DNA of 64,000 nucleotides, taken from assembly GCA_038227875.1 (NCBI GenBank), contig JBBRPR010000009.1, forward strand, positions 143,331 to 207,330, written 5' to 3'. The notes below the pieces were generated by a model, which saw only the letters and a program-made list of their open reading frames with translations, searched no databases and was not told where the DNA came from. Below are positions 132 through 10,131 of this stretch, piece after piece (positions within the stretch are counted from its first letter, which is position 1; each line of letters opens with the position of its first letter). The translations under genes were made by a program, and so were the position numbers. Source of the stretch: Planctomycetota bacterium. Its GTDB lineage: Bacteria; Planctomycetota; SZUA-567; H5-PLA8.

Positions 132-361
132 GGAACGCACTCTTTTCCTGACCGGCACCCTGGTCCCTGTCCTGAACCTGCCCGCTTTCACTGCACTGGA
201 TACCGCAGGCGGTACCCCGATTACAAGAATCCGAATTTTTTAAACGGTAATGAACGTTGAAATTATCCCAGCATATATTGAGCCCAGTCCATCCTACTAA
301 GGATGTGTAAAAAGAAGTGCAGAAACTTTAACTCCCGCCGTCTGTCTAAGTAAGGGTGCGC

Positions 362-823
362 ATGTTAAAGAAAGCGTCGGTCGACGACCTCAAATCGGGT
401 GCAATAACGCGAGCCACAAGTTACATAGTGATTACGATGTGCCACTACCCGCGGGGTATACGTAAGGAGTTGTCGGACGAGTACGTCAAAGCCCTCGCCC
501 CGGACCCAGGCCTGCTCAAAGACTTCCAGAGCGAGAAAAAGCGGCGGGAGGGCAGTCACAATGCCGCATTTGCCTGCGTCCACTATGAACAGCGGTTTAA
601 GCTGGAGCCGGAAGGAATCGCCGAGCTGCGCCGCCTGGCGGGGCTGAGCGGCGAAAGGGATGTCACCTTTGTCTGCCAGTGCGCGGCGGATGAACGCTGT
701 CACCGGGAATTATTACTCATTCTCGCGCGACAATGGTATGGGGCGAAGACGGAGATTCGCCGGTTTTCGTACCCGCTCTTTGAACGCCGCATTCCTGAGA
801 AAGAAGGCCCGCTCAAGTCCTAA
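362..823 (+). CDS. DUF488 (YeaO-like) family protein
   Basis: YPRGIRKE...LAP motif and C-terminal CxC...CHR motif. Confidence 0.7.
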   Translation: MLKKASVDDLKSGAITRATSYIVITMCHYPRGIRKELSDEYVKALAPDPGLLKDFQSEKKRREGSHNAAFACVHYEQRFKLEPEGIAELRRLAGLSGERDVTFVCQCAADERCHRELLLILARQWYGAKTEIRRFSYPLFERRIPEKEGPLKS

Positions 824-900: not shown

Positions 901-3177
901 ATGAAAGGAATAGCGCCCTTGCCAACCCGCACCGACATCCACCCGCTGCACCCGCTCTTTCGCAGGACCGCCGTGATGCTTCTGGCGGTATTCAGTCTCA
1001 CCTTTCATTTTCGAACCAACGCGGCGGAGAAGCTCAAGCCTGAGCATGTGGCGATCCTGGTGCCGCAGATTCTCGAGATCCACGTCAAGCAGCACACCAT
1101 GGATCCGGCGTTCATGCGCCGCCTGATGAAGGAATACGTCGAGCAGCTCGATCCGGGCCGCAGCTTCTTTTTGAAATCCGAATACGACGCCGTGTTGACG
1201 CTCACCGACGACGAATGCAACACGCTGGCTCAGCGCGCCACCGACGGCGACTTGGGACAGTTCAAAACGATCCTCAAGAACTTCCTCGACAAGCAGATCG
1301 CGCGCGACACGGAGATGTACGCCTCGCTGGACAAGCGCGCCGATGAAATCCGCCAGAAGGCCAAGGACCGTTTGAAGGCCCGCACCGACAAGGCCGACGC
1401 GACCAAGCCTGACACCGCGATCAAGCCCGACACCGCCGTGAAGCCCACCAAGCCCGACGAAACGGTGACCAAGGACAAGGACAGCGAGGACGATTACATC
1501 GATCCCGACGGCATCATCTGGAAGGACCGCCCGGCGACCAACGAGGAACGCGAAAAGCGTCTGATCATCTCCACCGCGTCGCTCTACTCCCTGAACAAGG
1601 AGTACCTCAAGGACGACGAAGCGATGAAGCTCGCCATCCAGGCAATTCAGCGCAACCGCGAAAAGTGGCAGAAGACGGTCGTCGACGACGACGTCGCCAA
1701 GATTTTCCTGAAGAGCTTCATGATGGCGCTGGACCCGCATTCCGATTACCTGGAAGGCGACGACGAAGAAGATTTCACCTCGCACATGGAACGCAGCTTC
1801 GCGGGAATCGGCGTGCAGATTCGCCCGTGCCCGCTGGGCGCGCATATCGAAGATGTGATCAAGGGCGGACCCTCGGACAAGAGCGGCAAGTTCGCGCGCG
1901 GCGACCAGATCGTAGCCGTCGACAACGTGGTGCTGGCCGGCATGACCATCAACAAGATCGTCAAGCTGATCAAGGGCGAGAAGGGCACCGACGTGAAGTT
2001 GACGGTGCTGAAGCGCGACACCAGCAAGACCGATGTCATCACCATCAAGCGCGACACGATTGAACTGGCCGACATGCGCGTGAAGGGCAAGACCATCGAT
2101 TCTCCGGACGGCCCGGTGGGCTTGATCTCCGTGCAGGCGTTCTACCAGGGCGTGCACAACGACGTCCGCGACCGCCTCAATGAAATCAGCAAGGGCAAGG
2201 CGCTCTCCGGCGTGGTGCTGGACCTGCGCAACAACACCGGCGGGTACCTCGACGAAGCGATCGGACTGGCGAGCCTGTTCATCGAATCCGGCGCGGTGGT
2301 CGGCGAACGCAACGGCCGCAACAAGATCCAGTGGCAGGACGATCCGGACGAGAAGATCGAATTCCGCGGCCCGCTGGTCATCCTGACCAACCAGTTCTCG
2401 GCCAGCGCATCGGAAATCGTGACGGGCACGCTGAAAGCCTACGGCCGCGCGGTGGTCGTCTCACACACGCAGACGTTCGGCAAGGGCACCGTTCAGAAGG
2501 TTCTGCCGCTCAATTCGCACGGCCTGCCGGGCGAAATCAAGGTTACGACCGATCAGTACTTTCTGGCCAATGGTTCGTCGGTGCAGTTGAAGGGCGTTGA
2601 TCCGGACGTGATCATTCCCGGCCCGAAGCTGCTCAACGAAGACGGCTACCTGGAAGCCGCGACGCCCAACGCGATCGCATGGAACCAGATTCCCGGCCGC
2701 CTCGACAACGCCAAGCCCGAAGTGAAGATGTGGATGGAGTGGAAGAACAAGAACATGAAGTCGCTGCAGGGTCGTTCCAAGCAGCGCATCGACGCCAACC
2801 CGGAATTCGCGAACCTCTTCGACTTGAAGAAGCGCAAGGAAAAGGAAAAGGCGAACCCCGAGAAGGACAAGCCCGACAATCCTGACGCTCCGCCGGCGCT
2901 TGACGAGAAGAAGAAGGACGAGAAGGATCCGCAGGCCGACGAAGCCGTGGCGATTGTGCGCGACATGATCAGCACGTGGCCGTTGAACGACGGACAAGCC
3001 GTGGCCGAAATGCCGCCGCCTCCGCCGGTTGTCGCTCCGTCCGTCGCTGCCGACACCGAGCTGCAGGCGCAGATCGAAAAGTTGAAGGAAGAGAACAAAC
3101 AACTGCGCGAAGAGAACGAGAAGCTGCGCAAAGGCGTGACCCAGTCCAAGCCCGTGAAAGACGAAATCACCAAGTAG
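901..3177 (+). CDS. prc: Tail-specific / C-terminal processing protease, peptidase S41 with PDZ domain
   Basis: LDPHSDY, PDZ GIGV, DLRNNTGG, SASASEI (catalytic Ser), TFGKG (catalytic Lys); hydrophobic N-terminus; start uncertain. Confidence 0.9.
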   Translation: MKGIAPLPTRTDIHPLHPLFRRTAVMLLAVFSLTFHFRTNAAEKLKPEHVAILVPQILEIHVKQHTMDPAFMRRLMKEYVEQLDPGRSFFLKSEYDAVLTLTDDECNTLAQRATDGDLGQFKTILKNFLDKQIARDTEMYASLDKRADEIRQKAKDRLKARTDKADATKPDTAIKPDTAVKPTKPDETVTKDKDSEDDYIDPDGIIWKDRPATNEEREKRLIISTASLYSLNKEYLKDDEAMKLAIQAIQRNREKWQKTVVDDDVAKIFLKSFMMALDPHSDYLEGDDEEDFTSHMERSFAGIGVQIRPCPLGAHIEDVIKGGPSDKSGKFARGDQIVAVDNVVLAGMTINKIVKLIKGEKGTDVKLTVLKRDTSKTDVITIKRDTIELADMRVKGKTIDSPDGPVGLISVQAFYQGVHNDVRDRLNEISKGKALSGVVLDLRNNTGGYLDEAIGLASLFIESGAVVGERNGRNKIQWQDDPDEKIEFRGPLVILTNQFSASASEIVTGTLKAYGRAVVVSHTQTFGKGTVQKVLPLNSHGLPGEIKVTTDQYFLANGSSVQLKGVDPDVIIPGPKLLNEDGYLEAATPNAIAWNQIPGRLDNAKPEVKMWMEWKNKNMKSLQGRSKQRIDANPEFANLFDLKKRKEKEKANPEKDKPDNPDAPPALDEKKKDEKDPQADEAVAIVRDMISTWPLNDGQAVAEMPPPPPVVAPSVAADTELQAQIEKLKEENKQLREENEKLRKGVTQSKPVKDEITK

Positions 3178-3236
3178 CGCGCTAAAGCGCGAGGGGCCAG
3201 GGCCAGGGGTCAGAAAAGAGCGAGTGATTTGAGATG

Positions 3237-3271
3237 CAGGCGCGACCAGAAATGGTCGCGCCTGTTTTTTT
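3237..3271 (+). terminator. Intrinsic terminator after S41 protease
   Basis: CAGGCGCGACCA-gaaa-TGGTCGCGCCTG followed by T7. Confidence 0.85.
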
Positions 3272-3370
3272 GATCGGGGACCATATGGACTGTAGTCCCT
3301 AAGTAAAAACTACCACACAACTCGCCGTTCTTTGCGACTTAGCGGCTTTGCGTGAGATTAAGACGAAGTA

Positions 3371-4039
3371 TTAGCCGCTCACGTCCGCGTTGGGCGGCTC
3401 GGTTTTCCAGAGCTCCACGCTGACGCCCTCGGGGCTGGGCGTAAAGCGGTAGATCTTGTCGGCGTACTTTTCGAAGACCGTGTGTTCGTGATGGCTGATC
3501 ATGATCACCTGGAAGCCCAGCTCGCGTCCGGCGCGGTGGACGATGTTCACCAGGCGCGGGACGAGGTCCGGGCGCAGCCAGCAGTCCTGTTCGTCGAGCA
3601 CCAGAAACGGGCGGTGTGTTTTGGGATCCAGCGTCGCCAGCGCGTACATGCGCAGACCGACGGAAAGCACATTGGCGACCGAACCGCCCTGGCCGCGGAT
3701 GATGTCCTCCTCGCAACCGTCGCGGACGACGGTGAACTCAATCGCAGCAGCTTTATTCTTGATCGTCTGCGTGACTTTCACCGCGATGGGCTGGTCGAGG
3801 ACTTCGACCAGCGCCTGCGTCAGATTGCGTTCCAGCAATTGGCTGATGTGCTGAAAGAGCTCGCTGCTGAGTTGCTCCAGCGCTTCGCTGACCTGCGTCG
3901 ACATCGCCAGGTACGCGCTGACGCGTTCGAACTCGGCGCTGATGCGCGTTTTCTGCGCGGCGCTGGTTTCGTGCAGCACGGTGAGGCGATCGAGCCGGCG
4001 CGCAAGCGCTGCGGGTGAGCGCAGATCGGGCGGCGGCAT
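3371..4039 (-). CDS. C-terminal half of Rad50/SbcC-like ABC ATPase (coiled coil, signature-like motif, Walker B, H-loop; no Walker A)
   Basis: GQGGSVANVLSVGLR, FLVLDEQD, MISHH; TGATG coupling with upstream ORF. Confidence 0.8.
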   Translation of the reverse strand: MPPPDLRSPAALARRLDRLTVLHETSAAQKTRISAEFERVSAYLAMSTQVSEALEQLSSELFQHISQLLERNLTQALVEVLDQPIAVKVTQTIKNKAAAIEFTVVRDGCEEDIIRGQGGSVANVLSVGLRMYALATLDPKTHRPFLVLDEQDCWLRPDLVPRLVNIVHRAGRELGFQVIMISHHEHTVFEKYADKIYRFTPSPEGVSVELWKTEPPNADVSG

Positions 4040-4374
4040 CAGGCGCGGCGTCCTTCAGCAGGGATGCTGCCGCCGTGCGCGGCGCGGTGGGATTCTTCGA
4101 CGCTGGCCAGTTGCGTCTCGATCCCGTCGAGGTGCTTCTGATAGTCGGCGCGCAGGCGCTCGTTGTTGGCGATCATGTCTTTGAGCTTCTTCTGCAGCTC
4201 GGCGAGATCGTCGGTCTGGTATTCGTCGCGCGCTTTCTTGCGCAGCTTTTCGAGAGCTTCCTCGGCGGACTTGCGGTTGGTCTCCGCGGCGATGCGCTTT
4301 TCGTTCAGCGCTTCGAAGCGCTTGCGCAACTGCTCGATATTTTCCTGCGCCGCGTCACTTTTCAACTTTGCCAT
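4039..4374 (-). CDS. Small coiled-coil protein in SbcCD-like operon
   Basis: 111 aa, heptad-rich helical sequence; overlaps both neighbours. Confidence 0.75.
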   Translation of the reverse strand: MAKLKSDAAQENIEQLRKRFEALNEKRIAAETNRKSAEEALEKLRKKARDEYQTDDLAELQKKLKDMIANNERLRADYQKHLDGIETQLASVEESHRAAHGGSIPAEGRRA

Positions 4375-5323
4375 CGGGCACGACCTCCTTCGCCAGCTCC
4401 AGAATTTCTTCCTGCACCGCCGCGGGGTAACGGTCGATGTTCTTCTTTAAAAACGAGGTCAAGCCGCCGCCGCCCTGCGTGCGCAGCGTCCGCAGCTCGT
4501 TCAAGCCGGAGACGAAGAGCGAACGTTCGGTGTCGGCCGCCGCGGTCTTGGCGGCGCCAGCGTGAAACACCTTGGCAAATTTTTCGTGCGGCACTTCGAC
4601 GATCTCGCTGCGCCAGCCGTGCGTGTCGATGTCGACGCGGAGCACCGCGGGGACGCGCTCCTTGTTGCCGTCGCTGAATTTCACGCGCGCGATGTTGCCG
4701 GGATTCATCCACGTGGTCACGCCCTGTACCACCGCGGGCGCGGGCGTGTGGATGTGGCCGTTGACCAGCAGCGTGACGCCAGGAATCTCCGTCGCGTTGA
4801 AGCGCCCGCTCGATTCGTAGCCGGCGAAGCGGATGTCGTGGTGCGCCATCCAGAAAACCAGCGGCCGATCCTGGACCAGGAATTCTTCGGGCATCTCGAA
4901 CGCCTCGGGAATGCGCTGCCCCCAGGAGGTGCCGCCGATGATCACCAGCCGCGACCCCATCCAGCCGCGCCACGGACGGTCGAAGTCGACGATGCGCAGC
5001 CGTCGCGCGCGAACCACGATCTGCAGCGTGTCGTCGTCGCTGAGTTCATTGGTGGCGCAGTCGTGATTGCCGTAGATGCAGAGGACCTCGCCGTCGAGTA
5101 TCGCCATCAGTTCGGCCAGCAGCCAGTTGGCATTGTCGCGCGGCCAGTGGAAGACGTCGCCGAGGATCGCGGGGATCAGCTTGTTCTCCTTGGCGTACTT
5201 CAGGCACCACTGCAGCTTCTTCAAAATTGCGCGCGGATAGTCGTCGGAACGGAATCCCGGCACGCGGCTGGCGAGATGCGGGTCGCCGATGAAGAGGATG
5301 CCTTTGTAGATTTCATTTGGCAT
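4355..5323 (-). CDS. Mre11/SbcD-like calcineurin-type metallophosphoesterase (nuclease)
   Basis: GDPH, GDVFH, GNHD, HHD, GHIH, NPG motifs. Confidence 0.85.
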   Translation of the reverse strand: MPNEIYKGILFIGDPHLASRVPGFRSDDYPRAILKKLQWCLKYAKENKLIPAILGDVFHWPRDNANWLLAELMAILDGEVLCIYGNHDCATNELSDDDTLQIVVRARRLRIVDFDRPWRGWMGSRLVIIGGTSWGQRIPEAFEMPEEFLVQDRPLVFWMAHHDIRFAGYESSGRFNATEIPGVTLLVNGHIHTPAPAVVQGVTTWMNPGNIARVKFSDGNKERVPAVLRVDIDTHGWRSEIVEVPHEKFAKVFHAGAAKTAAADTERSLFVSGLNELRTLRTQGGGGLTSFLKKNIDRYPAAVQEEILELAKEVVPDGKVEK

Positions 5324-6662
5324 GGGTGTGCTCCCGCCGCGAGAGCAGCGACTCAGCGTCCACCGCGCCGCCGCAGGTCGGGCACGTCGGATTGCTCGAC
5401 GCCCACGCGCGGATTTCGTTCATCACGCCTTGGCGCTCGGCCTCGAGATCCTTCGCTTCCTGAGCCGCGTCCCTGGCGCGGGCTTCCAACTGCGCGCGGC
5501 TCTCGAGCAGCTCAACCAGCGCGCGAGTTTCCTGCTCGGCTGGCAAGACGCGGAGCACTTTCAACACATCGCGGGCCTGGACATGAGCCGCGAAACGGCG
5601 CTGCGCGGCCTCGAGTTCCTCGGTCAGGTGCGCGAGCTTCGCCGCATCGCCGAATTCCGGCGGCTCGTCGAGAATGGAAAGCTGTTCCGCGCGCCCCGCG
5701 TTGACGGCGTGCGCGCGTTCCTGCTCCTCCAGATGCTGGCAGAGCCACGCCAGAGCCGCGGCATCGCCGAGCCGCGGCGGCGGGGTGATCGCGCGCAACG
5801 CCTGCGACTGCGCCGTCCATGTGTCGCGCGCGTCGTGGTAATGCGCGAGGGATTCCAGCACCACCGTCAGTGCGCCGGTATCCGGCAGAGGGGGCGGGGG
5901 AGTCAGCGCGCGGATCAGCTCGACGGCAGACTGGCAGCGGCCATGGATTTCCGACTGTGTCTCCAGGTGTTCGACCAACTGCCTCAACTTTTCCGTCTCG
6001 CGTTCAGCGGAGACGATCGTCTCGTAAGCGCGCTCGGCCTCCGCGATCGATTTGTTCAGCTCCGCGACCGGATCGAGCGCCGCGAGCAGCGCGTCGGCGG
6101 CATGGAGCTCCCGTTCCAGGCGCGTCTTTTCGCGGGAGGCTTCCATGACCTTGGTGCGGTGGCGCTTCTGCATTTCGACCAGCAGCGCCGCGTCGGAGGC
6201 CGACGCGAAAAACAGCGCCGCGCGGCTGGGCGGTTCATCGAGCAGAAAGATCGGCGCTTTCTGCGTCGCGAAGTGGATGTCGAAGGCTTCGCGGCGTTCG
6301 GCGGCGTCCGGCGCGTCGGTGGGGATGACCTTGGGCAGGCGCAGCACGTCCTGGATCTGCTCCAGGATGTCCTTTTTGACCCGATGGACGGGTTCGCCGT
6401 CGAGTACGTAGCCCGGCACGCCTTTTTTCCGGAACCATTCGATGGTGTGGCCGTCGTCGGTTTCGACGATGACCTGGCAGTCCTTCTCGTTGTGGCGGAC
6501 CATGTAGCTGCCCTTTTCGTTGCCGCAAAGGGTTTGGAGCGCGCTGACGACCGCCGATTTGCCGCAGTTATTGGGGCCGATCAAGACGGTGAGGCCCGCC
6601 GCCGGTTCGATAACGGTGAGCGCGTGGGACATGTAATTTTTAAGCGTGATTTTTTTCAGCAT
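5313..6662 (-). CDS. N-terminal half of Rad50/SbcC-like ATPase (Walker A, helical arm, terminal CPTC zinc hook)
   Basis: ITLKNYMSH start, GPNNCGKS Walker A, FATQ Q-loop-like motif, CPTCGG near the C-terminus. Confidence 0.85.
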   Translation of the reverse strand: MLKKITLKNYMSHALTVIEPAAGLTVLIGPNNCGKSAVVSALQTLCGNEKGSYMVRHNEKDCQVIVETDDGHTIEWFRKKGVPGYVLDGEPVHRVKKDILEQIQDVLRLPKVIPTDAPDAAERREAFDIHFATQKAPIFLLDEPPSRAALFFASASDAALLVEMQKRHRTKVMEASREKTRLERELHAADALLAALDPVAELNKSIAEAERAYETIVSAERETEKLRQLVEHLETQSEIHGRCQSAVELIRALTPPPPLPDTGALTVVLESLAHYHDARDTWTAQSQALRAITPPPRLGDAAALAWLCQHLEEQERAHAVNAGRAEQLSILDEPPEFGDAAKLAHLTEELEAAQRRFAAHVQARDVLKVLRVLPAEQETRALVELLESRAQLEARARDAAQEAKDLEAERQGVMNEIRAWASSNPTCPTCGGAVDAESLLSRREHTHAK

Positions 6663-6708
6663 GACCGCGTTGAACTATAACGCGTTTCGCGGAGCCGTAC
6701 AGCGGCGG

Positions 6709-8229
6709 CTATCCCGTCGACCGCCGTCTCATGAATTTTCGAGCGGTGAGAATCAGAACGATCGCGAGGACCACGACTGCCGCCGTGGGATAGAAGTGCA
6801 GGTTCATACCGGGCGTGGTCGTGATCGTGAGCGTTCCATTGGACAGGGTCGTAGTCGAGACACGCGCGGCGGATGGCGACATCAACAACCAGGCGAAGCC
6901 CAATCCCACGGGCACCAGCGCGAGTGGCAACGCGAGCACAAATGCCGCAATCGCCAGTGGCGAGTAGCCGCCCCGCGCAGTCTTTGCGTCGCGCCAGGTC
7001 ACGGCCGGCGCGGTGGCCTGCGCCAGCGTTGATTCGGGCGCGGGCTCGAAGACCCGCACGCCGTTGGGACCCACCTCAATGCGGCGGCCGTTCTTCAACT
7101 GAAAACACGCCGCCAATCGCGATACGCGTTCACGTTCGGGCGAAGCTTCCGGAGCCGCGGTGATCGATGGCGTGGCGCTCGGAACTTTGCTCGGAAACGG
7201 AATCGCGGGCGCGGCAGCAGGTTGGGCAGCGGGCGCGGCCACAGCTTCGTGCTTTGACGAATACGTCGACGCGATGCCCTCCACGTCCTTCGACAGCATC
7301 CGCGCGCGCTGGTAGCGCATGTCGGGTTCCTTCTCGAGCGATTTAAGGATGACTTCGTCGAGGCGCACGTCGACTTCGACCCGCTTCGACGGCACCTGAA
7401 AACGCCCGATCGGCAGTTCGCCGGTGAGCATTTCGTAGAAGATCACGCCCAGCGAGAAAATATCGGCGCGGTGATCGACGGTCTTGGCGCGTTCGCGCTG
7501 TTCGGGCGCCATGTATTCCGGTGTGCCCATCAGCACGTGGGTGTGAGTCAGACGTTGTTCGGGCAGCGACATCTCGCCGTGGATCATCCGCGCGAGACCG
7601 AAGTCGGTGATCTTCACGTGTCCGTCGGTGGTGAGCAGAATGTTTTCCGGCTTGATGTCGCGGTGGACCAGGCCTTTGCCGTGCGCGTATTCCAGCGCGG
7701 CGCAGATCTGCGGCACGATTGCCAGCGCCTGTTCGGGCTTGAGCTTGCCGTCCAGCTGCAGGCGGCGCAGGCTGACGCCTTCGACGTATTCCATTACCAG
7801 GTAGAATGTGTCGCCGGAGATGCCGCGGTCGATGATTTGAACGATATTATGGTGGTTGAGCGTCGCCAGCGCGAGGGCTTCGCGTTCGAAGCGCGTGCGG
7901 AATTTGGAGTCGGCGGCCAGGCGCTTGGGCAGTACTTTAACCGCGACTTTCCGCTCGAGCGATTTCTGGACGCCCAGGTAGACGACGCCCATCCCGCCGC
8001 GCCCGATTTCCGATTCAATCAGGTAGCCGCCCAGGTCCGCGCCGCGCGCCAACCCCGGCGCTTCGTTGTTCTCGACCGGGGCTTCGCCCGATTGCGAGAC
8101 CGGTTGCGGCACCGTTTCAACGCGCGCGGGTTCAAACTGCCTGGCACAGGCATGGCACGTCAGCACCCCTTCCGATGCCGGATTGCCGGCACCACAGTGA
8201 GGACAATGGAAGGTGTTTGCGTCGCTCAT
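6709..8229 (-). CDS. Hanks-type Ser/Thr protein kinase with N-terminal zinc ribbon and C-terminal TM helices
   Basis: CPHC/CHAC; GRGGMGVVY, VAVK, HRDIKPEN, DFG, GTPEYMAPEQ; two hydrophobic segments. Confidence 0.93.
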   Translation of the reverse strand: MSDANTFHCPHCGAGNPASEGVLTCHACARQFEPARVETVPQPVSQSGEAPVENNEAPGLARGADLGGYLIESEIGRGGMGVVYLGVQKSLERKVAVKVLPKRLAADSKFRTRFEREALALATLNHHNIVQIIDRGISGDTFYLVMEYVEGVSLRRLQLDGKLKPEQALAIVPQICAALEYAHGKGLVHRDIKPENILLTTDGHVKITDFGLARMIHGEMSLPEQRLTHTHVLMGTPEYMAPEQRERAKTVDHRADIFSLGVIFYEMLTGELPIGRFQVPSKRVEVDVRLDEVILKSLEKEPDMRYQRARMLSKDVEGIASTYSSKHEAVAAPAAQPAAAPAIPFPSKVPSATPSITAAPEASPERERVSRLAACFQLKNGRRIEVGPNGVRVFEPAPESTLAQATAPAVTWRDAKTARGGYSPLAIAAFVLALPLALVPVGLGFAWLLMSPSAARVSTTTLSNGTLTITTTPGMNLHFYPTAAVVVLAIVLILTARKFMRRRSTG

Positions 8230-8283
8230 GAAAAACCTGTTCTCGGTGTTGCGCGGAACTCACCCACTTCGATTCAGTACATC

Positions 8284-8919
8284 TTAATCGTCGAGCCCCT
8301 GTTCGCCTACTGATCCGCTGGTCTTCTTCGGCGCAGGATTGGAGTTGGTAGAGGCATTCGTCTTGGGCGGATCCGGTCTCTCCACGGCGCCGAACTCGTC
8401 GGGGTTCTGTTCCCCAACCGAACCGGTCGTGGCCGAGCGCTGCGTGTTGGCTGGAGTCCGCGCACCGTTCGAGGGCGGCGGGGGGATTACAGGCGGAGCG
8501 GTGACGCTGATTATGCCTCCATTAGCACCGTTCCCACCCGAGGCGTTCATGCCGCCAGTGCCACCCGGTCCCGATAGTGTAATTATTGAAGGCGCTGCGG
8601 GCGGGGTACTCGGCGTCACCGTCATGTATACAGCCGGCGGGGAAATCGTGCTCGTTCCGTACGTTGCGCTCGAACCGCTTCTGCCGCCTGCCAGAAAGCC
8701 GAAGAACAGGAGTATCGGCACGATCAGGAGACTCATCGAGCCCAGCAGAATGGCCAGCAGCGCCAGACCGCGTCCCCGTACCGCGCCGCCGGAACGGTCG
8801 ATCTGCCGCAGCGCCATCACGCCGAGAACGATGGGCAGGATGCAGAAAATAAAGATGGCCAATCCGACTCCACCGATGGCCAAAAAAGCGCCGGGAAACA
8901 TGGAATTCGTGGGACTCAT
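8284..8919 (-). CDS. DUF4190-like membrane protein with low-complexity tail
   Basis: LGVMALRQIDRSGGAVRGRGLA motif between TM helices; Pro/Gly/Thr-rich C-terminus. Confidence 0.7.
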   Translation of the reverse strand: MSPTNSMFPGAFLAIGGVGLAIFIFCILPIVLGVMALRQIDRSGGAVRGRGLALLAILLGSMSLLIVPILLFFGFLAGGRSGSSATYGTSTISPPAVYMTVTPSTPPAAPSIITLSGPGGTGGMNASGGNGANGGIISVTAPPVIPPPPSNGARTPANTQRSATTGSVGEQNPDEFGAVERPDPPKTNASTNSNPAPKKTSGSVGEQGLDD

Positions 8920-8940: not shown

Positions 8941-9333
8941 CTACGCCGTTTCCGTCACCGGTTCAATCGGGATGATGATCCAGGCGAGCACATAAAAGAA
9001 CACGCTGATGCAGGTCAAAATCGCAACCACCGTAATGATGCGCACGAGCGCCGCATCGATGCCGGCATAGCGCGCGAATCCGCCGCAGACGCCGCCCAGC
9101 ACACTGTCGTTTCGCGAGCGGTACAAGCGCTGTTGTTGTGCGAGCGCGCGCTGAGGTGGCTCGAACCGCGTGGGCGCCGCCGGATACGCGGCGGGTATCG
9201 CATCGGCCAGGCACGTCTTGCAGTGGTGCTTGCCGGCCACCGTCACGTCGCATTCCGCACAGACCAGGTTGCCGCATGAAACGCAACCCGCCACCGCCTC
9301 ACGGTCATCATGAATCTTGCAGTTCAACGCCAC
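8941..9333 (-). CDS. B-box-like zinc finger + PspC domain protein
   Basis: CxxH..CxxC..CxxC..CxxC then LYRSRNDSVLGGVCGGFARYAGIDAALVR...YVLAWIIIP (PspC); GTG start after GGAGG. Confidence 0.82.
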   Translation of the reverse strand: MALNCKIHDDREAVAGCVSCGNLVCAECDVTVAGKHHCKTCLADAIPAAYPAAPTRFEPPQRALAQQQRLYRSRNDSVLGGVCGGFARYAGIDAALVRIITVVAILTCISVFFYVLAWIIIPIEPVTETA

Positions 9334-9351
9334 ACCCCTCCGGCACTTCAC

Positions 9352-9840
9352 TCAATTGCAGATCCAGAAAATCGCCGCGACCAACAGCGTCCAGAACATC
9401 GCGGCCCCATAATCGGTGATGCCGAAAAGGCCCAGCACACCACCCCTCTCTTTGATGTCCGCTCGCGGTACGACCATGACCGCCATCAAGGCTCCGACGA
9501 GGTAGATCCCGAACCCCGAGCCCAGAGCACACAGAATCGCGAAGAAGATGCCCTCCAGATCATGGTGCCGGTGGGAGATCTGGCCTCCAACAAAGCCCAT
9601 CATTCCACCGACGACGACCGCAAAGGTGATCAGTCCGAAATTGAAGCCTCGCGCAGCGCGCGTTTCGCGATTCGCGGTCGCGGTTACCGCCAGTTGCGCC
9701 GGCACGGCTTCGGCCTCGGCCAGACACTTCTTACAGACGTGATGATCGGCCAGTTGCACGTCGCAGGCCTCGCAGATCAGATTTCCGCAGGACGCGCAGT
9801 GCAATTCCGCTTGCCGGTCCGCGTGCAGGTAGCAGTTCAT
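9352..9840 (-). CDS. B-box-like zinc finger membrane protein
   Basis: MNCYLH..CASC..CEAC..CKKC followed by about 3 TM helices. Confidence 0.72.
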   Translation of the reverse strand: MNCYLHADRQAELHCASCGNLICEACDVQLADHHVCKKCLAEAEAVPAQLAVTATANRETRAARGFNFGLITFAVVVGGMMGFVGGQISHRHHDLEGIFFAILCALGSGFGIYLVGALMAVMVVPRADIKERGGVLGLFGITDYGAAMFWTLLVAAIFWICN

Positions 9841-10131
9841 CGTTGAAATCCCAAGTTCGTATCGACCTCTACAATAGACCACGATTGCAAGGCGAATGCC
9901 ATCAGAAAGTATTCGCTTGGCGCCGTCGCATCTATCGCTCCGGCCATGGTTTGCGGGATTGAATCAGCCGGAGTGATAGGACGGTGAAACGCGGCCGATT
10001 AAAGATTCTTTCCGCGTGAGGTATTAAGAATCTTTAGCCCCCACGCATCAGACCCCCAGGCCCCGAGTTCTGGGGTCGACGGGAATACGTTCACTCTTGC
10101 ACCGCCACGCAATCGCGCGAAGATAGGACGC

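Follow-up and report, generated by a model that had tools for sequence, protein, structure and literature searches.

An Mre11-type nuclease and a Rad50-like ATPase encoded in two halves form a conserved four-gene cassette in a planctomycete

A 64,000-nucleotide (nt) stretch of a Planctomycetota bacterium genome (contig JBBRPR010000009.1, positions 143,331–207,330; hereafter, the window) contains a cassette of four genes that encode a Rad50-like ATP-binding cassette (ABC) ATPase in two halves, an Mre11-like nuclease, and a small helical protein. All four open reading frames (ORFs) are located on the minus strand, and successive ORFs overlap by 11, 20, and 1 nt. The genes and the motifs found in the translation of the window are as follows, with coordinates given as window positions.

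5313–6662, minus strand: N-half of a Rad50-like ABC ATPase, 449 amino acids (aa), with Walker A, Q-loop, helical arm, and terminal CPTC
4355–5323, minus strand: Mre11-fold metallophosphoesterase nuclease, 322 aa, with a C-terminal helical domain
4039–4374, minus strand: helical protein, 111 aa, with a central (Y/F)GTDD motif, putative partner of the ATPase
3371–4039, minus strand: C-half of the ATPase, 222 aa, an N-terminal helical stretch followed by the C-lobe
6555–6578, minus strand: Walker A motif GPNNCGKS, invariant in the N-half alignment
5568–5918, minus strand: three tandem 39-residue repeats in the N-half arm, each a PPxLxD turn and a helix
5373–5384, minus strand: terminal CxxC (CPTC) of the N-half, candidate zinc hook or zinc knuckle
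3680–3694, minus strand: GQGGS in the C-half
3578–3604, minus strand: LVLDEQDCW (Walker B/D-loop) in the C-half
3488–3496, minus strand: SHH (H-loop) in the C-half

An earlier reading made from the DNA alone (the sequence-only reading) had described four overlapping ORFs with these overlaps and several of these motifs, and the ORF list, the reading of the junctions, and the window translation bore this out. A 452-aa antisense ORF (5322–6680, plus strand) shadows the N-half gene and was chosen in its place by a length-based ORF filter; the minus-strand frame is preferred since all homology falls in it. GC content at third codon positions is 0.80 to 0.85 in the three cassette genes that the filter retained.

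The N-half carries the Walker-A lobe. Its Pfam matches (AAA_23, 4e-10; AAA_15, 7.5e-9) are confined to the P-loop end, residues 1 to 68, and its PHROGs matches are family 16465, “exonuclease” (8.8e-19), and family 77, “SbcC-like” (2.4e-13). In an alignment of 42 N-halves (A2), residues G29, N31, N32, G34, K35, S36, Q134, C427, and C430 are invariant; the sequence HFATQ is the Q-loop candidate. The arm contains 39-aa repeat motifs that start at residues 256, 295, and 334, a spacing of exactly 39, and a recurring LxxLxxPPxLxDxxxLxxLIxxL pattern is seen in the A2 consensus. Homologues range from 365 to 754 aa, and the number of repeats varies.

The chain ends shortly after its cysteine pair: CPTC is located 19 residues before the stop codon, and HTH is found among these residues. 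Of 66 split N-halves, 64 have a CxxC within their last 60 aa, as do all 75 fused relatives (described below), and the proteins end 2 to 43 residues after it. The break in the ATPase thus falls directly after an invariant CxxC, with the N- and C-lobes encoded by separate genes, as the sequence-only reading had proposed when it placed the split at the zinc hook. The terminal CxxC probably binds zinc. Among the 64 split proteins, 31 have an HxH after it and 41 have two or more histidines there; among the 75 fused ones, the counts are 38 and 52. Given these histidines, the site could be an interchain hook of the Rad50 type, or many members could instead have an intrachain CCHH knuckle.

The remaining ABC motifs are found in the C-half. 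Its alignment (A4) shows invariant G118, G119, S120, D149, E150, D152, W154, S182, H183, and H184, with G116 and Q117 nearly invariant (at least 90%). The GQGGS sequence (GxGGS in fused relatives) occupies the place expected of the ABC signature and, in the model of a fused relative, the start of a helix. Pfam gave only a subthreshold SMC_N match at the C terminus, and the “ATPase” family 15167 of PHROGs (211 positions) matched at 1.4e-8. The nearest clusters in the ESM Atlas consist of proteins of 200 to 216 aa that are mostly viral.

The second gene encodes a protein with the calcineurin-like phosphoesterase motifs, which read GDPH, GDVFH, GNHD, and NGHIH in the window translation. Motifs I to V are present with all their metal ligands, and these are invariant among the 21 aligned nucleases (A1; D14, H16, D56, H59, N86, H87, H161, H190, and H192). 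Pfam Metallophos matched at 4.3e-10, PHROG 100, “SbcD-like,” only at 1.7e-5, and the NCBIfam scan returned only PdeM, at 0.0024. An AlphaFold2 (AF2) model built from the 21-sequence alignment reached a predicted local distance difference test score (pLDDT) of 77. When the model was compared with the PDB using Foldseek, Mre11 accounted for all 31 matches listed (ranks 1 to 50), the best at 8.3e-11, with template modeling (TM) scores of about 0.5 to 0.57. The model closes with three helices (residues 269 to 314), plausibly an ATPase-binding domain. In complex with the ATPase, the protein would have ATP-stimulated endo/exonuclease activity.

The 111-aa protein consists of two helices flanking the conserved (Y/F)GTDD motif. 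Its conservation (mean column identity of 47% over the 42 sequences of alignment A3) points to a genuine member of the system. The sequence-only reading had suggested modeling the proteins together. Co-folding of the N-half, the C-half, and the small protein gave 0.52, 0.52, and 0.53, compared to 0.06 for the best control, in which the N-half was replaced, and 0.00 for two swapped-partner controls; the partner had a pLDDT of 76, and at least 80% of contacts were common to the runs. When the score was calibrated, 116 of 157 solved complexes passed the mark, as did 2 of 215 mismatches; both of these mismatches but only 18 of the 157 complexes passed with a score of 0.60 or below; this calibration holds only roughly here, custom alignments having been used. 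The modeling thus lends weak support to the small protein folding together with both ATPase halves. Joining of the small protein and the C-half into one ORF, considered for loci L083 and L086, was ruled out by an in-frame stop in both.

The cassette is conserved as a unit. A search of metagenome proteins with the nuclease returned 399 proteins at E of 0.001 or below, hundreds of them about 50% identical; those with names were mostly from Planctomycetota. In an even sample of the phylum, the nuclease was detected in 6 of 201 genomes, including the window’s own, and in none of three genomes of the same family; all five other carriers keep the order of N-half, nuclease, small protein, and C-half. 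A scan of one genome per species yielded 149 relatives, of which 80 loci were retained. Besides Planctomycetota, these come from Desulfobacterales, Spirochaetota, Fimbriimonadaceae (Armatimonadota), Sumerlaeia, Poribacteria, Zixiibacteriota, Bipolaricaulia, Chlamydiae, Thiomargarita, and Chromatiales metagenome-assembled genomes. Cultivable carriers include Planctomicrobium and Thalassoglobus isolates (L043 and L059). By tblastn, the order is complete in 70 of the 80. Five of the 10 exceptions end at a contig edge (L041, L048, L063, L084, and L098), three have a gap of 380 to 430 nt where the small gene is expected (L044, L087, and L092), and two have no detectable C-half though the DNA is present (L080 and L091). 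Among the aligned sequences, the catalytic motifs of the ATPase and of the nuclease are all invariant. Since the same order recurs in five of five related genomes and in 70 of 80 loci from several phyla, the four-gene arrangement is far beyond chance.

The same data bear on the possibility that the cassette is a canonical sbcC gene fragmented into a pseudogene, with a nuclease gene inserted. Reading along the operon, one does meet Walker A, CxxC, and signature/Walker B in the same succession as in a single SbcC. However, the gene boundaries, the overlapping start and stop codons, and the gene order are conserved in 70 of 80 loci, and the best 150 homologues of the C-half include no canonical N-to-C single chain apart from a 118-aa deletion chimera. 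Because its boundaries are conserved across phyla, the cassette is not a broken sbcC, which agrees with the sequence-only reading’s view that it is not a frameshifted gene; we regard the pseudogene explanation as highly improbable.

Relatives in which the halves are joined were found by searching 1.84 billion representative proteins with the C-half; the architecture counts below refer to the best 150 matches. The nearest matches are about 220 to 290 aa long, and from an E value of about 1e-25 onward many are proteins of 570 to 800 aa with the C-half at the N terminus; these long matches continue into a Walker-A lobe, as identified with Pfam and our own profiles. Eighty-four have the C-lobe followed by the N-lobe, 60 consist of the C-lobe only (less than 300 aa), five have the C-lobe and an unexplained extension, and one is the deletion chimera. 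The latter, P0270, is a 118-aa metagenomic protein in which the first 36 residues of an N-half are joined directly to the last ~68 residues of a C-half; it looks like the result of a deletion of the intervening part in some carrier, or an assembly artifact. Proteins P0124, P0127, P0138, P0143, and P0151 are 475 to 531 aa long with the C-half at the N terminus. In P0124, P0127, P0138, and P0151, the extension comprises 250 to 300 residues and has no Pfam match, and neither P0124 nor P0127 matches the N-half profile.

Because many relatives fuse the two halves, C-lobe first, the N-half and the C-half belong to one head. This supports the heteromeric Rad50 of two or three chains that the sequence-only reading had proposed. 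That reading would have been given up had the homologues normally been single fused genes; fusions do occur, but only in permuted order, which strengthens the idea of a heteromer.

The fused form is annotated on 22 plasmid records, among them NZ_CP031226.1, all typed as non-mobilizable; the 21 listed ones are 253 kb to 1.3 Mb in size. In these proteobacterial megaplasmids, the fused protein is annotated as “AAA family ATPase” or “DNA repair ATPase-like protein.” In the Pseudomonas protein, the C-half of the window aligns by BLASTP to residues 1 to 202 (33% identity, 1e-26), and the N-half aligns to residues 228 to 480 (2e-11). The megaplasmid form is therefore a permuted single chain of C-lobe and N-lobe, whereas in the window cassette the lobes are separate genes. 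In six of six plasmid loci inspected, a small ORF precedes the fused ATPase, and a metallophosphoesterase or hypothetical protein follows. The small ORF is homologous to the 111-aa protein of the window in Bosea (97.3%), Variovorax (96.2%), Acidiphilium (93.6%), and Vibrio (88.3%); in the Pseudomonas and Alteromonas ORFs, only a central GTD-like motif aligns. The order in fused loci (small, C, N, nuclease) compared to that in split loci (N, nuclease, small, C) is therefore a cyclic rotation. Five of the six megaplasmid loci are close to genes for topoisomerase, UvrD, RecQ, RecJ, LigD, or ParAB.

The nuclease position is not uniform among fused loci. On the Pseudomonas sp. FeN3W megaplasmid (L020:8838-9734), the protein at this position, annotated as hypothetical, has GDPLL rather than GDPH and so lacks the motif-I histidine, unlike the window nuclease; the nuclease may be inactive in the Pseudomonas branch of the fused type. 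The Pseudomonas and Vibrio megaplasmids CP136011.1 and CP099927.1 (~0.9 to 1.2 Mb) share a block of genes around the fused ATPase (topoisomerase, lytic transglycosylase, UvrD-like helicase, small ORF, fused ATPase, and nuclease-like gene), which suggests a common backbone module.

The fold of the ATPase was modeled with AF2 on a fused relative, P0174, using a 75-sequence alignment (pLDDT of 84, above 90 in the head). The model has N-terminal helices (residues 2 to 82), a C-lobe (90 to 212), an N-lobe (238 to 385), and a 92-residue helix (388 to 479), followed by three short low-confidence helices, a final helix (606 to 644), and a CxxC at 649 to 652. Its top Foldseek matches are the N- and C-lobe chains of Pyrococcus furiosus Rad50 (4.3e-5, target-normalized TM score of 0.54 to 0.71), and Smc5/6, SMC, RecN, and RecF come next. 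In a quick IQ-TREE tree of 124 C-lobes, the 42 split sequences fall on one side of a branch with a Shimodaira-Hasegawa-like approximate likelihood ratio test (SH-aLRT) value of 100, and three phage sequences are found on another branch, with long branches. Since the tree is unrooted, it does not show the direction of change between the split and fused forms.

Split versions also occur in phages, and PHROGs holds a separate family for each half (16465 for the N-half and 15167 for the C-half). In the Bacillus prophage phBC6A51, BC1852 (“SbcC,” 518 aa) is related end to end to the N-half and has a terminal CPLC (hhalign, 98.8%, 1.2e-16), BC1855 (211 aa) corresponds to the C-half (97.3%), and BC1857 (“SbcD”) corresponds to the nuclease (97.8%). 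The order there is N-half, two small ORFs, C-half, a small ORF, and last the nuclease, after which comes a helicase. In the Microbacterium phage Magritte, three genes are scattered over 133 kb, unlike the window operon; the Magritte and phBC6A51 proteins tested scored 97.3 to 98.8% with hhalign. Magritte gp4 was considered as the N-half and rejected. These phage versions share with the window an N-half ending in CxxC, a separate C-half (~211 to 236 aa), and, in phBC6A51 and Magritte, a separate SbcD-like nuclease. No homology to the small protein of the window was detectable in the phage small ORFs BC1853 and Magritte gp1. In phage 0305phi8-36, gp8 (a 769-aa exonuclease), gp7, gp6, and gp5 (a C-half–like ATPase) were placed by tblastn and annotation only. 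What was available to us of the study of this phage describes gp8 as an Mre11/Rad50 fusion that lacks one P-loop segment and makes no mention of a separate C-half gene (Yoshida et al. 2011, PMC3175470). Scans of IMG/VR viral contigs with the nuclease (A1) and C-half (A4) profiles found no relative. The phage relatives are located among early, replication, or recombination genes.

These occurrences could be taken to mean that the cassette is what remains of a phage or plasmid recombination module, either domesticated or in decay, with no present cellular role, the split merely reflecting mobile-element ancestry. The presence of the family in Bacillus and Microbacterium phages and on megaplasmids, the mostly viral ESM Atlas clusters nearest to the C-half, and genomic contexts that differ between hosts would all fit. 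On the other hand, all four genes are intact, the catalytic residues are invariant over 42 aligned loci, and the flanks of the cassette in the window are free of phage, integrase, and transposase genes. In addition, the position of the split-type sequences on one side of the SH-aLRT 100 branch fits long maintenance as a unit, both vertical and horizontal. We consider a remnant quite improbable.

A role in defence was the other possibility raised by the sequence-only reading. Here, an SMC/Rad50-like ATPase would detect the ends or the topology of foreign DNA, leaving the nuclease to degrade the invader or the cell’s own DNA, with a logic as in Lamassu, Wadjet, and Gabija. The patchy distribution (occurrence in 6 of the 201 sampled genomes of the phylum, with none of the three from the same family) would suit an anti-phage or anti-plasmid system, as would the 41 to 57% identity of relatives across phyla, which implies horizontal transfer, the autonomy of a cassette without conserved neighbors, and weak PADLOC similarities of the ATPase to AriA (4.9e-10), LmuB (5.2e-9), GajA (~1e-8), and mad3 (1.8e-8). 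Yet these matches are largely limited to the first 45 to 80 residues, that is, the P-loop, or to generic ABC lobes, and no PADLOC family was matched by the nuclease. The flanks in the window and in five related genomes contain housekeeping genes that differ by locus (S41 protease, Ser/Thr kinase, CTP synthase, RsgA, and SelA), and when 3172 ORFs of at least 80 aa from 84 loci were clustered, no family outside the cassette span was common to more than four loci. Of 132 ORFs flanking the cassette at 19 loci, only five, from three loci, have a defence model match at 1e-10 or below; these are a restriction-modification–like pair, Cas3/Cas8, and a probable permease. Partner genes of Lamassu, Wadjet, Gabija, PARIS, Septu, and MADS were absent from the cassette flanks at the loci examined. 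Finally, the phage and megaplasmid relatives are found among replication and repair genes, and the IMG/VR scans with the A1 and A4 profiles returned no relative.

Since no flanking family is widely shared and defence matches are few, the cassette is autonomous, has moved over evolutionary time, and has no tie to defence islands. The survey of gene neighborhoods thus confirmed an order conserved across phyla without conserved neighbors, the defence-island enrichment that the sequence-only reading had considered was not seen, and gene context gave its anti-phage or anti-plasmid alternative no positive support. We regard defence as unlikely. Two of the 19 loci do have the cassette beside genes of this kind: type I Cas3/Cas8 (Cas3g, Cas8g) or a PD-(D/E)xK nuclease with a methyltransferase (L037:8993-12855 and L024:7929-11801).

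We favor, as the probable explanation, a heteromeric SbcCD/Mre11-Rad50–like nuclease that acts in an ATP-dependent manner on DNA ends or hairpins and serves repair and replicon maintenance. The catalytic residues are invariant throughout in both enzymes, so that the most parsimonious interpretation is an active ATP-dependent nuclease. SbcCD and the gp46/47 proteins of phage T4 process DNA ends and secondary structures, and they provide the comparison for the role of the cassette. The location of relatives among phage recombination genes and in megaplasmid replication and repair neighborhoods suggests that DNA ends or secondary structures are processed to maintain replicons, and these locations fit the end-processing role named in the sequence-only reading better than defence.

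The mechanism that we envisage is as follows. The four genes would give rise to one machine of the Mre11-Rad50/SbcCD type, its ATPase built from separate chains. The N-half would provide the Walker-A lobe, the arm (a long helix and the 39-residue repeats), and the terminal zinc-binding CxxC, which would either pair two complexes as a hook or form a small knuckle. The C-half would contribute a helix that pairs with the base of the arm and the lobe with the signature, Walker B, and H-loop. Together, the halves would make a composite ATP site that closes on a second head upon ATP binding. The 111-aa helical protein would bind the arm, and the nuclease, with its complete two-metal site and C-terminal helical domain, would dock on the ATPase. 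The complex would use ATP to recognize and cut DNA ends, hairpins, or blocked ends. Its role in the genome of the window, in which canonical sbcCD was not detected, would be in DNA repair and the maintenance of replicons. Of this picture, the gene structure, the conservation of motifs, the fold, the naturally occurring fusions, and the distribution rest on observation; the geometry of the assembly, the binding of zinc, the nuclease activity, its substrate, and the physiological role are inferred.

The sequence-only reading had proposed looking for a separate canonical sbcCD in this genome, which is 88% complete. The sbcC model TIGR00618 found nothing in it, and the sbcD model TIGR00619 gave no match at 0.001 or below. 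A candidate for a canonical SbcC at C24, the best AAA_23 match elsewhere in the genome, was rejected, as it is SMC (TIGR02168, 1026 bits).

Several results weigh against the end-processing reading. No curated Rad50, SbcC, or SbcD model reaches its cutoff on the cassette, the best NCBIfam match being Rad50 PRK03918 at 31.5 bits against a cutoff of 700, and the nuclease sequence profile found nothing below an E value of 0.3 in the PDB. The canonical ABC signature of Rad50 and SbcC is LSGG(Q/E), and the cassette has GQGGS in its place. The ATPase that was folded is the distant fused relative P0174 and not the halves of the window. Occurrence in 6 of 201 genomes together with the spread over several phyla resembles accessory or defence modules rather than core repair. 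Furthermore, sbcD scores above the cutoff in none of the six carriers compared to 32 of 195 other genomes of the phylum sample; since six carriers are too few, its absence from them is uninformative.

The surroundings of the cassette contain one further feature and several genes of separate interest.

3236–3265, strand unassigned: GC-rich hairpin of 13 pairs that separates the end of the cassette from the convergent S41 protease gene

The hairpin has a T-run on the plus strand and an A-run on the other side and was scored as a plus-strand terminator-like site; it might also act on the cassette transcript. No sigma-70–like promoter was seen at 3000–8600, a negative that is uninformative for this phylum. 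Upstream, a Ser/Thr protein kinase gene (6709–8229, minus strand) ends 46 nt before the first start codon of the cassette and may be cotranscribed with it. The kinase has a zinc-ribbon–like N terminus (CxxC...CxxC) and a hydrophobic segment at its end, and it is not a conserved neighbor at other loci. Two adjacent genes (8941–9351 and 9352–9882, both on the minus strand) encode proteins that start with a similar Cys-rich segment (C..C...CxxC...C). The first has a PspC domain, the second has no Pfam match, and they resemble a paralogous membrane stress pair. At the left edge of the window, a DUF488-N3a family protein (356–823, plus strand) adjoins the S41 tail-specific protease, which has a long Lys/Glu/Pro-rich C-terminal tail.

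Rad50/SbcC and SMC proteins are single folded-back chains whose ATPase head is connected with the hook or hinge by one long antiparallel coiled coil, and how the nucleotide state is transferred along this arm is still debated. It is quite possible that the family is a Rad50-like lineage in which the chain stops at the zinc-binding CxxC, the lobes are separate or permuted, a helical hairpin protein replaces part of the returning strand, and the split and fused operons are cyclic rotations of each other. If so, nature has already performed the experiment of cutting the coiled coil at the hook, and signaling of the ATP state between head and hook needs no continuous antiparallel coiled coil. The split and permuted members would then be a natural test of which covalent connections are needed, and they offer a compact, dissectable Mre11-Rad50–like system for structural work. 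The family also explains the paired annotations “AAA family ATPase” or “hypothetical protein” and “metallophosphoesterase” in the planctomycete, megaplasmid, and phage records inspected, and it would supply the P-loop segment reported missing from the 0305phi8-36 Mre11/Rad50 fusion. The interest lies in the mechanism of Rad50 and SMC proteins, the cellular role probably being ordinary.

The family has apparently never been studied. The literature covered by our search, which did not take in one key classification review, contains no description of a split or permuted Rad50 or SbcC and nothing relevant on circular permutation combined with Rad50, SbcC, or an ABC ATPase; the portion of PMC6690015 available to us has nothing on split genes. 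The sequence-only reading had left room for the cluster being an already characterized system, and within the same literature no characterized homologue was found.

Two known groups of systems invite comparison. Like the cassette, Lamassu-type SMC/Rad50-like defence ATPases combine a nuclease effector with an SMC-like ABC head that contains a coiled-coil insert, and the Lamassu protein LmuB gives a weak profile match over residues 2 to 437 of the N-half (5.2e-9, 33.8 bits). Unlike Lamassu, the cassette has no LmuA or LmuC partners and no defence-island setting, and its nuclease is Mre11-like. With SbcCD/Mre11-Rad50, it shares an ABC ATPase (Walker A, Q-loop, Walker B/D-loop, and H-loop), a helical arm ending in CxxC, and, in the same operon, an Mre11-fold nuclease with all phosphoesterase motifs. 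It differs from them in that the ATPase lobes are encoded by separate genes, so that no single chain has a central CxxC hook and the N-half chain stops 13 to 30 residues past its CxxC, in the additional conserved 111-aa helical protein, in the 39-residue Pro-punctuated repeats of the arm, and in having GQGGS at the place of the signature. The cassette is thus a system that probably works like Mre11-Rad50/SbcCD yet falls outside both the single-chain architecture and the curated models by which that family is recognized.

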